This document shows, one piece after another, positions 44,463-49,498 of a stretch of DNA of 64,000 nucleotides. A model generated the notes under the pieces. It searched no databases and had not been told where the DNA came from. It worked only from the letters and a program-made list of their open reading frames with translations. Source of the stretch: an uncultured Gemmatimonadaceae bacterium (GTDB lineage: Bacteria > Gemmatimonadota > Gemmatimonadetes > Gemmatimonadales > Gemmatimonadaceae); contig CAVVTZ010000007.1 in the NCBI GenBank assembly GCA_963751275.1, positions 1 to 64,000 of the forward strand. The letters run 5' to 3'. Every line of letters begins with the position of its first letter. Position 1 is the first letter of the stretch. Made by a program: the position numbers and the translations under genes.

Positions 44463-46520
44463 CTAGATCCCGTGACGCACGCTCAACACCAACTGCCGCG
44501 GTGTGCCGGGGCTGAGGAACCCGCTCGCCTGTACCTCCACGTACCGGTGGTCCAGAATGTTCTGCACACCCACGGCGCCGCTCCAATCGCCGCTCACCGG
44601 GAAGACGCCGCGCAGGTTCAACAGCGTATAGGGTGAAGTGAGCACGCCAGGCTCGTTCACCGGCGTCCACGGTCCCGTGTACGCGGCCCAGATCGAACCC
44701 GCAAAGGCGCCCTGCTGCAGGTCGAATCCCGCCTGCACGGTGGACTTCGCCACCTGGAATACCGGCTGCCCCGAGAGGTCCGTGCCCTCCTCCGTCACGA
44801 GATGCACGTAATGCGCATCGTTCACGGTGGCGTGCGCGAACACCGAGAGCCACCGCAGGATCCCCACGCGGCCGTCCAGCTCCACGCCCTGCTGCCGTGT
44901 CGTACCGCCCGAACTCGGCTGCAGCGTCACCGGGTCCACCGTCTGCTGGTTGCTGACGTTGATGAGGAAGAGCGCGACCGAGCCCTCCACCTTCTGCCCC
45001 GTGTACCGCATGCCGAGTTCGCTCGCTCGCTCGAGCGCCGGCGGCAGCGAGGGCGTGACGATCGCGCCATCGCTCGAGCGGTACCCGCCGTTATAGGAGA
45101 TGTACGCCGAGAGCGCGTTGGTGAATCGATAGATCGCGCTGAGCTTGGGCGATGCGATCCATTGGCCATCGCTCGTGGTCGGACCGCCGCTGCGCTGCCC
45201 GGACTCGTAGTAGATCCAGTCCAGCCGCCCCCCGATCCCCAGGCTCAGGTCGCGGGTGACGTCCCAATGTGCTTCCACGACCGGTGCGATGCCGCCATAC
45301 AGCGCACTGAGATTCGCGGGCGTCTCATCGAAAGAGAAGATCGAGTCGCGCACACGGTCGGTGGTGTAATAGCGCTGGTACTGTGCCTCGACCACGCGAT
45401 AATCGATCCCCACCTCGAGGTGCGTCTCGCCGAGCTGCTTCGCCCAGCGGGTCGTGCCGCCCATGCCGAAGCGCTGGTCGAGTTCCTCCGTTTGCGACTG
45501 CACGCCTTCGCCAATGCCGCCCTCCGGCGGGATCGTGAGGAAGATGTGCCACGTGCCGCCGTGCGCGTACAGCGATGACGTGAGTGTGCCACGCCAGGCA
45601 TCGCGCTCCATCGCGAAACGCACGGTGCCGAACCCTTCGTTGCCACCGTCGGTCGGATTCGTGGCCGCGGTGAGATCACCCGCCTTGTATTGCGAGTCGC
45701 TGATGAATCCCGGCGAGTGCCATCCGCCGCCGTAGCCGCTCACGCCGAGCGTGTACGTGCTGCCGCCGTCACCGTACCAGACACGACTCACCATGAGATG
45801 CCCGATCGCCTCCTGGCTGTTGTCGCGCCAGCCGTCGGCGCGTTGCAGGTCGCCGGCGAACATCCAGCCGCCGTCGGCGGTCTCATCGCCGGTGAGCAGC
45901 TGCACGCGCGCGTCGCCCCACGAGCCCACGCGCGCGCTCCACTCCGTGCCCAGGTTCATCGGCACGGTGATCACGTTCATCGTGCCGCCCATCGCGAAGT
46001 TCCCCGCCCACGGCGACGCCGGTCCCTTGGTGACCTCCACCCGCTTCACCGCTTCCGGAATGAGCGCGTTCCAGTCGGCGTAGCCCTCGGCGTGCCCGCT
46101 CACCGTCTCGTTGAGCGGCACGCCGTCGATGAACGCCGCGTCGTCGGTCGAGTGATCGGAAGTGAATCCGCGCACCGCCGCATCGGACGCGAAGCCCGGT
46201 CCCTGACCTTGCAGGTGGACCTCGACCCCGGCCGTCTGCCGCACGATGTCCCACGCGTCGGTGGCGGGCACGGTGCGGATCGCGCTGGGCAGGATGATGA
46301 CGCTGCTCGCCGCGTCGGCGCGATGTGTGGGCGGGGCGACTACGCGGATCACCGGCATGCTGGTCATGCCGTGGGTCGAATCGCGCGGCGCGCGCGTGGT
46401 GCTGTCGGCGGCGGGCTTGCGCGTCGTGTCGGGCTGCTGCGCCGTCGCGTGGAGCGCCGCGGCGAACAGGATGGCCGCCGCCGGCGCGAGTGCGCGGGCA
46501 CGCGAGGATATCACATGCAT
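44463..46520 (-). CDS. TonB-dependent receptor
   Basis: Signal peptide; plug motifs (VRGFTSDHSTD, IDGVPLN, HAEGYADWN, RVEVTKGP); barrel C-terminus VQNILD..Y...PGTPR. Confidence 0.93.
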   Translation of the reverse strand: MHVISSRARALAPAAAILFAAALHATAQQPDTTRKPAADSTTRAPRDSTHGMTSMPVIRVVAPPTHRADAASSVIILPSAIRTVPATDAWDIVRQTAGVEVHLQGQGPGFASDAAVRGFTSDHSTDDAAFIDGVPLNETVSGHAEGYADWNALIPEAVKRVEVTKGPASPWAGNFAMGGTMNVITVPMNLGTEWSARVGSWGDARVQLLTGDETADGGWMFAGDLQRADGWRDNSQEAIGHLMVSRVWYGDGGSTYTLGVSGYGGGWHSPGFISDSQYKAGDLTAATNPTDGGNEGFGTVRFAMERDAWRGTLTSSLYAHGGTWHIFLTIPPEGGIGEGVQSQTEELDQRFGMGGTTRWAKQLGETHLEVGIDYRVVEAQYQRYYTTDRVRDSIFSFDETPANLSALYGGIAPVVEAHWDVTRDLSLGIGGRLDWIYYESGQRSGGPTTSDGQWIASPKLSAIYRFTNALSAYISYNGGYRSSDGAIVTPSLPPALERASELGMRYTGQKVEGSVALFLINVSNQQTVDPVTLQPSSGGTTRQQGVELDGRVGILRWLSVFAHATVNDAHYVHLVTEEGTDLSGQPVFQVAKSTVQAGFDLQQGAFAGSIWAAYTGPWTPVNEPGVLTSPYTLLNLRGVFPVSGDWSGAVGVQNILDHRYVEVQASGFLSPGTPRQLVLSVRHGI

Positions 46521-46526
46521 GAGAAT

Positions 46527-46540
46527 CCCCCTCCGCAGGG
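46527..46540 (-). promoter_or_regulatory. Hairpin that could sequester the receptor's SD
   Basis: mRNA reads CCCCU-GCGG-AGGGG just upstream of the ATG at 46520; GGAGG lies in the loop and 3' arm. Confidence 0.4.
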
Positions 46541-46589
46541 GTAAGGGTGTGCTCAGGGATCGATTGGTGATGCAGGAGCGCGAACGGCG

Positions 46590-46979
46590 TTACGCGGCGA
46601 GCGCGGGCGGAGGGCCGTTGGCGAAGGGAAGGCGGGTGTCGACGCGGGAGGGCGGCACGAGGCGGGCCGCGAGCGGAACGCGCCCGGCAATGATCGTGCG
46701 CGCCTCGGGTACCGCCGCCGTGGGGGCGGGCAGGGTGAAGAACGACGCCGCGGCGCACTGCTCCAGACAGCAGCACTGATGATGCCGGTGCCCGCCGTGT
46801 CCCGAGTGCGCATCGTGGTGCGCATCGTGGTGCGCATCGTGGTGCGCCATCTCGAACGCGGCCGCCGCCAGCGGGTCGTGCAACGGACAATGGTCCATGA
46901 GGGCCCGCTCCCCGAGGGAAGCGGACATCCACAGGACCATGAGCACGGCGCTCAAGCGGCGCATCGCGGAACGGCGCAT
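46590..46979 (-). CDS. His/Cys-rich leader protein (DUF2946/CruR-like) upstream of the TonB-dependent receptor
   Basis: Hydrophobic N-terminus; HCPLH; (HHDA)x3; HQCCCLEQC; Pro/Ala-rich spacer; terminal LPFANGPPP. Start at 46979 or 46964. Confidence 0.75.
   Translation of the reverse strand: MRRSAMRRLSAVLMVLWMSASLGERALMDHCPLHDPLAAAAFEMAHHDAHHDAHHDAHSGHGGHRHHQCCCLEQCAAASFFTLPAPTAAVPEARTIIAGRVPLAARLVPPSRVDTRLPFANGPPPALAA
46806..46846. repeat. 12-bp tandem repeat x3 encoding His-His-Asp-Ala
   Basis: GTGCGCATCGTG repeated three times plus a partial copy. Confidence 0.85.
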
Positions 46980-47042
46980 GAGGCGACAATCTAACTTCCG
47001 GCCCGCATTGCGACAGCGCATCGCGCGCTCCAGACTTCCCGA

Positions 47043-47774
47043 ATGATCGAAGTCGCGTCCCTCACGAAGCGCTACGGCGAGTTCACCGCCGTGCGCAACC
47101 TGTCGTTCACGGTCGCGCCCGGCGAAGTGCTCGGGCTGGTCGGCCCGAACGGCGCGGGGAAGACCACCACGCTCCGCTCGCTCGCCGGGATCATCACGCC
47201 CACGGCGGGCCGCATCAGCATTGGCGGCTTCGACCTCGCGCAACGGCCCGAACGCGCGAAGGCGCTGCTCGCCTTCATCCCCGATGAGCCGCAGCTGTTC
47301 GACTATCTCACGGTCGAGGAGCATCTCGTCTTCACCGCGCGCGTGTACGGGGTGGCCGACGCGGCGGGGCGGATCCCGGCGCTGCTCAGCGAGCTCGAGC
47401 TGTCCGACAAGCGCGGCGCGCTCCCCGCCGAACTGTCACGCGGCATGAAGCAGAAGCTCGCCATCGCTTGCGGGCTCGTGCACGCGCCATCGGCGCTGAT
47501 CCTCGACGAGCCGCTCACCGGCCTCGATCCGGCCGGGATCCGGCGGATGCGCGCGACGATCGCCGCGCGCGCGCGCGAAGGCGCGGCGGTGCTGCTCAGC
47601 TCGCATCTCCTGCATCTCGTGGAGGAGTTGTGCACGCGCCTGCTCATCATCCAGCGTGGTGAGCGCGTCGCGATCGGCACGATCGCGGAGATCGTCGCCG
47701 GGCAGCCGCAGCTCGCGGGGCAGGGTCTCGAGGACATCTTCCTCGCGCTCACGGGCGACGGGCACGGCGGGTGA
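47043..47774 (+). CDS. ABC transporter ATP-binding protein
   Basis: GPNGAGKTT, LSRGMKQK, ILDEPLTGLD and SSH. Confidence 0.93.
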   Translation: MIEVASLTKRYGEFTAVRNLSFTVAPGEVLGLVGPNGAGKTTTLRSLAGIITPTAGRISIGGFDLAQRPERAKALLAFIPDEPQLFDYLTVEEHLVFTARVYGVADAAGRIPALLSELELSDKRGALPAELSRGMKQKLAIACGLVHAPSALILDEPLTGLDPAGIRRMRATIAARAREGAAVLLSSHLLHLVEELCTRLLIIQRGERVAIGTIAEIVAGQPQLAGQGLEDIFLALTGDGHGG

Positions 47775-49498
47775 GCGACTCCGTCGAGGCGCTGCGGTTC
47801 CTGCTGGCGCGCTCGCTGGCGAACCGCGTGCGTGTGGAAGTGCGGCGCGCGCGGTCGCCGCGCTACGCGATCGCGATCGTCATCGGCGCACTCTGGCTCT
47901 GGACCGTCCTGGGCAGCGGCGCACGCGGCGGCGCGCCGGCCCCCGCCGGCGACGTGGTCCAGTATGTCTATGAGGTGCTGATCGCGCTCACGACGGCGTG
48001 GCTCTGGGTGTTCGGAGCACCGGAACCCGCAATGACGTTCAGCCGCGCGGAAGTGCAGATGCTCTTTCCGGCCCCGATCACGCGCCGCGCGCTCATCAAT
48101 TACAAGCTCGCGCAGTCGCAGATCGCCATCCTGCTGAGCGTGCTCATCTGGAAAGTGCTGCTCGTGCGCTCAGTGGCGGGCATGCCGTTCCGCCACGCGC
48201 TCGCGCTCTGGGTGCTGTTCACCACGCTCTACCTGCATCGCGTGGGTGCGTCGTTCGTGCGCGTGAGCGCGGCGCAGCACGGTCGCGCCGGACTGCGCCG
48301 CAATTGGTTGCCACTCACGATCGCGGCAGCTGCGATCGGGGCGACGGCCTGGACGGTCTACGAAGCGATCCCCACGCTCACCGCCGCGTTGACCACCGGG
48401 GCGATCGGCAGCGCACTGCGCGCGCTGCGAGAGACGCCGGTCCTCCGCGTGGTGTTCTGGCCGTTCCATGCGCTCGTCGCTCCCGTCTTCGCGCGCACCG
48501 GCGCCGAGTGGTCGGGCAGCATCGGCTGGGCACTCCTGCTCCTGGCCGCCTCCTACGCGTGGGTCGCGCGCACCGGGGTCGCCTTCGAGGAAGCGGCCAT
48601 GCAGCGCTCCGAGCGAATGGCGGCGCAGCGCGCGGCGCGTCGTACGCGCGGCAATGTCGCGCTCCGCGCGAGCCGCATCTGGCCGCCGCTCCCGCCCAAA
48701 GGCCGGCCGGCCGCCGCCATCGCGTGGAAGGTGGTGGTCGCCTTCCAGCGGTTCGTGCCGCTCACGCGCGCCGCGCTCCTCACGTTGCTCTTCGTCGGCG
48801 TGATCCTGCTGTCGATGCCGGGTGTGCGTTTCGGCGTGCAGCTCATGGGCACGGGAATGCTCGTCGCCGCCGGGCTCCTCGCCCTCATGGGCCCGCTCTT
48901 CACGCGCACCGATCTGCAGCAGGACATGCTCATGCTGTCGCTCCTGCGCACCTATCCGCTGAGCGGCCGCACGATCGTGGCCGCCGAGATCGCCGGAACG
49001 GTGGCCGTGCTCAGCGCGGCCCAACTCGCGCTGGTCGTGGCCGGATTCGCGCTGCTCGCGCCATGGGCAATGCAATGGGTGCGCGACGTCGCTCCATCGC
49101 GCGTGGTATCCGCGGCGCCGATCGTCCTCTCCCTGCTGCTCATCACGCCGGCGGTGACGGCGCTGCGCGTCGCGGTCGCGAACGCCTGGGCCGTCCTCCT
49201 GCCCGGCTGGGTACACCTCGGGCCGGGACGCTCGGGCGGCATCGAGTCGCTCGGCCAGAATCTGTTGAGCGTCATGGGATCCATGGTCGCGCACCTGCTC
49301 CTGCTCGTCCTCCCCGTGCTCGCCGGGGCGATCGTCCTCTGGGCGCTGCGCGGGATCGTGGGACCGGCGGCGTCCATTCCCGCCGCGATCGTCGCCGCGG
49401 CGGCCGCCGGCGCGGAACTCTGGTTCATCGTCGGCTGGCTCGGCGCCGTGCTCGCGCGCACCGACCCGGCGGTCGTGGAGGCGGCTACGGCTTCGTGA
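47771..49498 (+). CDS. Putative ABC exporter membrane protein
   Basis: GTGA overlap with the ATPase gene; FSRAEVQMLFPAPITRRALINYKL; more than 10 TM segments. Confidence 0.85.
   Translation: MSDSVEALRFLLARSLANRVRVEVRRARSPRYAIAIVIGALWLWTVLGSGARGGAPAPAGDVVQYVYEVLIALTTAWLWVFGAPEPAMTFSRAEVQMLFPAPITRRALINYKLAQSQIAILLSVLIWKVLLVRSVAGMPFRHALALWVLFTTLYLHRVGASFVRVSAAQHGRAGLRRNWLPLTIAAAAIGATAWTVYEAIPTLTAALTTGAIGSALRALRETPVLRVVFWPFHALVAPVFARTGAEWSGSIGWALLLLAASYAWVARTGVAFEEAAMQRSERMAAQRAARRTRGNVALRASRIWPPLPPKGRPAAAIAWKVVVAFQRFVPLTRAALLTLLFVGVILLSMPGVRFGVQLMGTGMLVAAGLLALMGPLFTRTDLQQDMLMLSLLRTYPLSGRTIVAAEIAGTVAVLSAAQLALVVAGFALLAPWAMQWVRDVAPSRVVSAAPIVLSLLLITPAVTALRVAVANAWAVLLPGWVHLGPGRSGGIESLGQNLLSVMGSMVAHLLLLVLPVLAGAIVLWALRGIVGPAASIPAAIVAAAAAGAELWFIVGWLGAVLARTDPAVVEAATAS

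Follow-up and report, generated by a model that had tools for sequence, protein, structure and literature searches.

What is the function of the short open reading frame (ORF) that directly precedes a TonB-dependent receptor gene in an uncultured Gemmatimonadaceae bacterium? The ORF (129 codons and a stop, 46590..46979) lies on the minus strand of the 64,000-nucleotide (nt) stretch that we analysed (the window: positions 1 to 64,000 of contig CAVVTZ010000007.1, assembly GCA_963751275.1). The intergenic gap between its stop codon and the ATG of the receptor gene (46520) is exactly 69 nt. We consider it probable that this ORF is a cis-acting metal-sensing leader peptide of the type of CruR (Bordetella pertussis) and CutF (Rhodobacter capsulatus), and that it controls the receptor gene behind it. 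From the comparative sequence data presented below, the finding is best described as a widespread variant of this kind of leader peptide that lacks the Arg of the RAPP arrest motif and carries LPFANGPP.

Translation of the leader starts at ATG 46979 (129 amino acids) or at the in-frame ATG 46964 (124 amino acids) and ends at TAA 46592-46590. All of its elements were read on the minus strand. Residues 2-28 (46896..46976) are basic and hydrophobic, and AlphaFold2 modelled them as a helix (predicted local distance difference test, pLDDT, ~90); this export-like segment is a putative signal peptide or membrane anchor. It is followed by HCPLH (residues 30-34; 46878..46892), of which CPxH is the conserved first ligand motif in a 150-sequence alignment. 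The translated ORF then has a His-rich tract, (HHDA)x3-HSGHGGHRHH (residues 46-67; 46779-46844). A perfect 12-nt tandem repeat (46806..46847; Tandem Repeats Finder: period 12, 3.5 copies, 100% matches) encodes (HHDA)x3. The Cys cluster CCCLEQC (46755..46775) holds C69, C71 and C75, which are conserved as CxCxxxC in alignments of 150 and 40 sequences. Next is a Pro/Ala-rich spacer of 45 residues (46620..46754), fixed in length and variable in sequence across the family. The predicted stall site is LPFANGPP (residues 117-124; 46608..46631). The C-terminus reads L117-PFANGPPP, then ALAA and the stop, which leaves five residues (PALAA) after NGPP. The codon of P123 is CCT (46613-46611), and by analogy with known arrest peptides P123 and P124 are predicted to occupy the P and A sites of the stalled ribosome. 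A sequence-only reading of this DNA had described an ORF of 124-129 amino acids ending 69 nt before the receptor, its export-like N-terminus, HCPLH, the repeat-encoded His tract and CCCLEQC, and our analysis bore out each of these. Two details needed correction: the spacer, given there as about 40 residues, has 45, and the NGPP motif, given as terminal, is followed by ALAA after NGPPP.

The leader belongs to a large family. Searched with the family profile, a set of 1.84 billion cluster representatives contained 764 matches at E<=1e-3, of which 103 reached E<=1e-10, and a word-indexed search returned eight homologues with 48-79% identity. Across these close homologues C31-P-x-H-D, C69-x-C71-L-E-x-C75 and T115-RLPFANGPP are invariant, and the His tract and spacer vary. 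LPFANGPP was unchanged in 9/9 close homologues, down to 48% identity. It is likewise invariant, together with C69, C71 and C75, in the 40-sequence alignment. Among 150 sequences, C31, P123 and P124 are invariant, and conservation reaches 90% or more at W17, P32, H34, H47, C69, C71, C75, P118 and G122. The pattern P-[FYWLP]-x-x-[GA]-P-P near the C-terminus fits 251/259 family proteins. The core of the motif in these 251 is NGPP in 218, followed by TAPP (10), IGPP (7), NAPP (5), TGPP (3), HAPP (3), LGPP (2) and single cases of MGPP, VGPP and QAPP. The first core residue is N in 223, T in 13, I in 7, H in 3, L in 2, and M, V or Q in one each; none has Arg, as the sequence-only reading had said of the motif in the window. 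The tail after PP is variable and counts 1-9 residues.

Within Gemmatimonadota, the profile matched in 138/301 sampled genomes (a count that takes in one unpublished genome, G057) and in 57/128 genera, often with 2-5 copies per genome. We observed no Pfam label and no name but 'hypothetical protein' among 120 listed matches of a further profile search. Judged by sequence comparison, the leader family is real, widespread, large and unannotated. A narrow-pattern scan of a species-representative collection found eight loci, all in metagenome-assembled genomes (MAGs) of Gemmatimonadaceae; for a range beyond Gemmatimonadota, the Atlas gives hints only. The genome of the window (3.1 Mb assembly, 83% complete) also encodes a paralogue (G000:C1:23456-23842; L011 5456-5842, plus strand) with CPCMGDCC and the tail HLLPPAQAPPALRV, a QAPP variant, and a 482-amino-acid Plug-domain ORF lies ~100 nt after it. 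No RNA sequencing run is listed with this DNA, and the DNA runs listed contain small shares of it only. In the related loci L005 and L006, two 7-8 kb contigs of the MAG that also contains L003, frameshifts interrupt both leader and receptor; the probable cause is assembly error or strain variation in a long-read MAG and not a pseudogene of note.

The three closest homologues (P0002-P0004) have a single HHDA unit, and both length and sequence of the tract vary across the family. The repeat is therefore a recent, local expansion in this genome. The sequence-only reading had proposed a role in the uptake of Cu, Ni, Zn or Co; a variable, recent repeat expansion provides no basis for Ni, Zn or Co.

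We compared the distances between the conserved elements. The distance between the last Cys of the cluster and the x of xGPP was 45 residues in the window, 45 in 120 proteins and 43-47 in 241/251 (mode 45, standard deviation 1.4). CPxH and the Cys cluster were separated by a far more variable distance, 23 to 109 (standard deviation 9.6). These data suggest that the spacer behaves as a ruler, with a fixed length and a free sequence. The sequence-only reading had named the conservation of PFANGPP and of the Cys-to-PP distance as its check, and both were conserved. CruR has 45 residues between CXXC and RAPP, conserved within 1-2, and tolerates changes of +/-1-2 residues and not of +5 (PMC9426467); a 45-residue spacing is also stressed for CutF (PMC9973294). 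Ten CxxC...RAPP leaders that we pulled from Gemmatimonadota genomes with the Pfam model had spacers of 43-46. Because the spacing is equal in NGPP and RAPP leaders, Asn121 occupies the place of the RAPP Arg. With P123 in the P site, C75 would be 48 residues from the peptidyl-transferase centre and all other ligands further out. The ribosome exit tunnel holds about 30-40 residues, so C75 would sit just outside it at the predicted stall.

To describe gene order, we scanned metagenome contigs with a degenerate codon pattern for LPFANGPP, which gave at least 120 stretches. Of 80 loci fetched, 46 were family-like and 34 were dropped before the counts. The downstream ORF could be tested in 42 loci and was a TonB receptor in 31 (Plug, barrel or CarboxypepD_reg N-domain). 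The others were CopC or CopC-CopD (2), MbnP (1), CCP_MauG (MbnH-like; 1) and seven short fragments without a domain match. In 6/6 intact genome loci the next gene has a signal-peptide-like start. Homologues of cruR have the same set of partner genes (TonB receptor, CopC/CopD, MbnP/MbnH-like; PMC9426467), and upstream ORFs ending in RAPP/RGPP are enriched before TonB receptors and copper genes (PMC12992588). Gene context is the only evidence for copper as the metal. Together with the export-like N-terminus, the Cys cluster, the 45-residue spacer and a PP near the stop, the position as first gene before a TonB receptor makes up the CruR-like architecture, which the sequence-only reading had recognised correctly.

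The pattern scan also returned frames reading SLPFANGPPPP... (L012, L013, L017, L020 and others), which were rejected as not belonging to the family. Many are antisense to an unrelated gene; in L017 the frame is antisense to a conserved 577-amino-acid ORF with GGGGPFAKG (L017 2281-4014). Judged by what lies on the opposite strand, such frames are a chance mirror of the motif codons and a trap for pattern searches.

A different account of these data is that the ORF encodes a small metal-binding protein, exported or anchored in the membrane, which acts in trans, for example as a metallochaperone or receptor partner, with LPFANGPP as a contact or processing motif. It would accommodate the conserved export-like N-terminus and the three conserved ligand motifs, and also a conserved tail of eight residues, which exceeds the RAPP cores. 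The missing Arg, essential to known RAPP arrest (PMC12992588), the inability of the CutF tail to stall on its own (PMC9973294) and a weak similarity to the CopL 'metal-binding regulatory protein' likewise fit such a protein. Its predicted structure fits less well. AlphaFold2, run with the 40-sequence alignment, was confident of helix 2-28 only (mean pLDDT 68.8; predicted template modelling score 0.36) and predicted no fold beyond it. A spacer of free sequence but fixed at the CruR/CutF length is more readily explained as a measure of distance to the ribosome than as part of a folded domain. In addition, the motif always lies 1-9 residues from the stop with variable tail residues, the rare-codon bias described below falls on a single Pro only, and the leader gene is always directly upstream on the same strand. 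We consider a trans-acting protein unlikely.

Codon usage in the motif was assessed in 53 loci. L, P, A and G are encoded by different synonymous codons from locus to locus and stay constant as residues, which argues for selection on the peptide and not on the RNA alone. Spacer indels preserve the reading frame (close homologues and 40-sequence alignment), and LPFANGPP is retained in loci with unrelated intergenic regions. The first Pro of PP was encoded by CCT in 33/53 loci and in 20/29 clusters at 60% identity. CCT was used at the two other motif prolines in 2/53 and 1/53 loci. The background level was 6.0% (31/517) of Pro codons upstream in the same leaders and 4.4% (23/528) in downstream genes. 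One possible reading of this bias is that CCU-CCN gives CCUCC, a string resembling the anti-Shine-Dalgarno (anti-SD) sequence. Many CCT loci (judged by eye, without a count) have no SD before the next gene, with no clear link between CCT and SD, and the anti-SD reading therefore cannot be general. A second reading is that the tRNA that decodes CCU may matter for pausing. A tRNA scan of the genome found just Pro(CGG) and Pro(UGG), and tRNA-Met was also missing from this 83% complete assembly; because the assembly is incomplete, nothing follows from the Pro tRNA census.

Pro-Pro motifs pause ribosomes generally. An ordinary polyproline pause at GPP, relieved by elongation factor P (EF-P), could couple translation of the leader to the receptor without metal-controlled arrest, and the Cys and His residues would then do something else or nothing at all. 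The rare CCT codon might do no more than slow decoding, and the Arg-less motif and the weak stalling of CutF (PMC9973294) would fit such a pause. However, conservation covers eight residues and not PP alone, and such a pause leaves the strict 45-residue distance to the Cys cluster unexplained. In CruR, an EF-P knockout had no effect (PMC9426467). We regard an ordinary pause as quite improbable. Hardly credible is conservation at the RNA level only, with the ORF end and spacer as a regulatory RNA and the peptide irrelevant: conserved nucleotides just after the stop do pair with the F-A-N-G codons and the stall codons are complementary to the ribosome-binding site (RBS), but synonymous sites of the motif vary under constant amino acids, spacer indels are in frame, the motif is conserved across loci with unrelated intergenic regions, and no Rfam match was found at E<=1 within 46300-47200.

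For a cis-acting leader peptide, we infer the following sequence of events. The ribosome would slow or arrest with P123 and P124 of LPFANGPP in the P and A sites. At the stall, the Cys cluster would have just emerged from the exit tunnel, with CPxH and the His residues further out. A metal, most likely copper, would bind the nascent chain and change the dwell time of the ribosome, and the occupancy of the final codons would set receptor expression. This occupancy could be read out by keeping Rho off the C-rich, G-poor leader end and spacer, as in CruR, or, in the manner of CutF and SecM, by opening mRNA pairings in which the receptor RBS and the stall codons take part; the two may combine. The CruR logic would be more natural for an uptake receptor: arrest and expression on without metal, release and expression off with metal.

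We assessed the mRNA for features on which these read-outs could act. By direct reading, CCCUCCGC in the G-P-P-P codons (46607..46614, minus strand) is the perfect complement of the RBS GCGGAGGG (46536-46529). This pairing was possible in 64/64 cells of eight related loci and showed no covariation; in L070, a shifted CCCUCCGAG matches the RBS variant CUCGGAGGG. Minimum free energy and centroid folds both contained a hairpin, H1 (46579..46623, minus strand), in which the F-A-N-G codons CGCCAACGGC (46623-46614) pair with GCCGUUCGCG (46588-46579) at 9/10 base pairs. The 3' arm of H1 lies just past the stop codon, and the PP, tail and stop codons are in its loop. Across eight related loci, 84.4% of cells of H1 were paired, compared to 17-53% in slid registers. 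A compensatory C-G to U-A change, made up of a synonymous Gly codon and the first base after the stop, occurred in 2/8 sequences. A second hairpin of 5 base pairs, CCCCU-GCGG-AGGGG (46528..46541, minus strand), lies over the SD GGAGGGGG (46534-46527), where the sequence-only reading had placed a small hairpin; both sequence and fold support it. Here 89.6% of cells were paired, one sequence (L044) had compensatory changes and 44/500 shuffles equalled it, which we take as weak comparative support.

Base composition was permissive for a role of Rho. The 69-nt intergenic region (46521..46589, minus strand) is C-rich and G-poor (without the RBS: C 0.47, G 0.16), as part of a stretch with C>G in the mRNA from ~46700 to 46540 (C 0.46-0.55, G 0.19-0.27). 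Intergenic C exceeded G in 35/35 loci, at least 1.5-fold in 15. A Rho homologue is encoded in the genome (442.6 bits; intact Rho-like gene C9:106815-107879). Given the C-rich RNA and Rho on the one hand and the pairings of stall codons with the RBS on the other, Rho access (CruR) and RBS unmasking (CutF, SecM) are both possible. A second Rho-like region (G000:C9:524704-525950) is spread over three frames with an internal TGA, which could result from a frameshift in a paralogue or from faulty assembly.

Several results weigh against a leader of the CruR/CutF type. The Arg of RAP(P/G) was irreplaceable in mutagenesis of ApcA, ApdA and ApdP, as earlier in SecM (PMC12992588), and NGPP should therefore not arrest in the RAPP manner. 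In LepB fusions, the EGPPP tail of CutF required the Cu motif and copper to stall (PMC9973294). The leader scored below the cut-offs of DUF2946 (PF11162; 17.3 bits, E 0.0084, profile positions 7-110 of 117, cut-off 23.7 bits; 15.6 bits in the whole-genome search) and of CopL_fam (NF033807; 20.8 bits, E 4.7e-4, cut-off 40 bits). Homology to DUF2946 was also tried with hhalign against the ten CxxC-RAPP leaders from the same phylum; the match covered the N-terminus only, at 19.7% probability, and homology is therefore not established. The intergenic region is 162 nt long in B. pertussis and 69 nt here. The fold of the leader end and intergenic region was not more stable than shuffles (z -0.24). 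When the 30 nt under the stalled ribosome were forced to be unpaired, predicted RBS accessibility in the window rose only slightly, from 0.436 to 0.482. Of 26 loci, the stall mask outperformed every one of seven control masks at 11, equalled them at one and reduced accessibility at four; the control masks sit further from the RBS, which biases the comparison towards the stall mask. The effects of masking were mixed and small and do not decide between the two read-outs. The receptor had no NCBIfam match above the cut-off and no copper-receptor model matched it, and no copper or other metal gene turned up among the neighbouring genes.

One way in which the missing Arg and a working leader could be reconciled, which we put forward tentatively, is that LPFANGPP is a distinct, Arg-independent arrest motif. 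LPFA, perhaps with the CCU tRNA, would replace the Arg contact, and the metal site 45 residues away would tune the arrest. Structural work holds the Arg of RAPP/RAGP indispensable, and metal-sensing arrest peptides such as CruR and CutF are a recent discovery. The NGPP family is large and natural and has the ruler geometry and gene context of CruR and CutF, yet its invariant eight-residue motif is Arg-less, and one codon is favoured at the predicted P site. If NGPP stalls, the rules for peptide-mediated arrest would be widened and a simple test system gained. If it does not, the 45-residue geometry common to CruR, CutF and the NGPP family calls for another explanation. If LPFANGPP acts in this Arg-independent, metal-tuned way, it would be the main means by which Gemmatimonadota adjust TonB receptors to metals after transcription; it is present in ~half of the sampled genomes. 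Neither Pfam nor NCBIfam recognises the family, which marks candidate receptors for the uptake of copper or other metals in a poorly studied soil phylum.

The receptor (44463..46520, minus strand) has 685 amino acids, a Plug domain and a 22-strand barrel (Pfam Plug 2.5e-16, barrel 3.7e-29). Its plug contains SDHSTD and SGHAEG, the His-containing motifs that the sequence-only reading had listed. Among solved structures, its best relatives were CntO, FoxA and FptA, with E-values near 1e-10. Upstream of the leader, an ABC ATPase and a 575-amino-acid putative ABC exporter (PF16962) are divergent (47043-49498, plus strand), and a TetR gene downstream of the receptor is convergent; the operon therefore consists of leader and receptor only. 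The divergent ABC ATPase/PF16962 arrangement is kept in L001-L003 and not in L004, and has no evident link to the receptor.

Just 64 nt separate the ATG of the leader from that of the divergent ABC gene. A -10-like box, TAGATT (46988..46993, minus strand), is located 8 nt before ATG 46979 and occurs as TA(G/A)(A/T)TT in 4/4 aligned loci. Comparison with L001, L003 and L004 also revealed a conserved GCGCTGTCGCAA block, which together with this box lies upstream of the leader (window 46981-47040, minus strand). Transcripts of the leader may have little or no 5' untranslated region (leaderless mRNA), and a regulator may bind the GCGCTGTCGCAA block. A promoter and terminator scan found nothing at its thresholds.

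We compared the leader to known systems. The CopL family shares with it a small Cys/His-rich protein upstream of copper genes and differs in the type of downstream gene; CopL_fam was matched at E<=0.01 by 21/150 family members. ApdA, ApdP, ApcA and SecM resemble it as small secretory or membrane proteins with a motif near the C-terminus and Pro-Pro at the P and A sites. Their motif begins with Arg, whereas the leader has Asn121 (T, I, H or L in relatives) and a longer conserved stretch, LPFA. The remaining features of the RAPP type are present, namely Ala or Gly in second position and Pro-Pro in third and fourth (G122-P123-P124), near the C-terminus of a small, putatively exported protein. For RAPP-type arrest, Gly as the second residue is fully tolerated or even favourable (PMC12992588).

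CutF is a DUF2946 protein that ends in PEPEGPPPRL, with genetic evidence for a stalling-like mechanism (PMC9973294). Because its tail is Arg-less, an Arg-less xGPP leader has a precedent. CutF and our leader further share CxxxC (C71-x3-C75 here), a spacing of ~45 residues and a stem-loop over the SD of the next gene. The definition of the CutF-like set accepts any PP among the last 15 residues (PMC9973294). With 129 amino acids (<150), PP at 123-124 of 129 and a receptor 69 nt downstream, the leader agrees with the description of this set, and its basic and hydrophobic N-terminus, a confident AlphaFold2 helix at 2-28, may be the signal peptide expected of such proteins. In CutF, copper switches on an exported copper oxidase for detoxification. 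Here an uptake receptor follows, and we therefore predict regulation of the opposite sign. The eight-residue LPFANGPP does not occur in the available text of that paper (PMC9973294), of which the 29 logos of sequence similarity network clusters (Fig. S6) may include NGPP-type members. We found no paper naming an LPFANGPP or NGPP motif in the literature; the Fig. S6 logos or Table S1 of the CruR study may already contain members of the family. The sequence-only reading had proposed a possible new arrest-peptide class. This was partly pre-empted by the CutF-like definition and EGPPPRL (PMC9973294). What is new is that all eight residues of LPFANGPP are invariant, how large the family is and the phylum in which it occurs.

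DUF2946, the domain of CruR and CutF, was also compared. It was matched at E<=0.01 by 20/150 family members (best 2.3e-4). This similarity, like that to CopL_fam, is distant and, as far as sequence can tell, counts for a leader of the CruR/CutF type. The conserved CXXC of DUF2946 is replaced by C69-x-C71-x3-C75, and RAPP, ~3 residues before the end in DUF2946, by NGPP followed by five residues. The distance of ~45 residues from Cys motif to PP and the place as first gene before a TonB transporter or copper-homeostasis genes are as in DUF2946 and CruR. Given the score below the cut-off and the absence of CXXC and RAPP, the leader is not to be filed as DUF2946. True DUF2946 leaders are rare in Gemmatimonadota (above the cut-off in 9/301 genomes). 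The genes after ten such leaders were a TonB receptor (4), an ABC ATPase (3), an outer-membrane efflux protein (2) and an unassigned ORF (1); RAPP leaders in this phylum thus also stand before genes other than those of uptake receptors, such as ABC ATPase and efflux genes. Canonical CxxC...(S)RAPP leaders (L134-L144) were seen in G074, G106, G100, G204, G200, G244, G255, G286, G172 and G253.

The closest parallel is CruR (Bp2923), the upstream ORF of cruR-crtA(bfrG)-bp2921 in B. pertussis, whose arrest has been toeprinted in vitro (PMC12992588). CruR is likewise a small first gene before a TonB-dependent transporter, with an export-like N-terminus and a Cys motif exactly 45 residues before an xxPP that lies a few residues from the stop. 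Poor structure is reported for CruR and predicted for the leader, and in both the RNA at the leader end is C-rich and G-poor. They differ in the ligands (CXXC in CruR, CxCxxxC and an additional CPxH in the NGPP family), in the motif (RAPP compared to the Arg-less LPFANGPP) and in the receptor, which is not CrtA-type by NCBIfam and solved-structure searches. Overall, these comparisons suggest that the leader is not a demonstrated member of DUF2946 and that it probably resembles CruR and CutF in the way it works.

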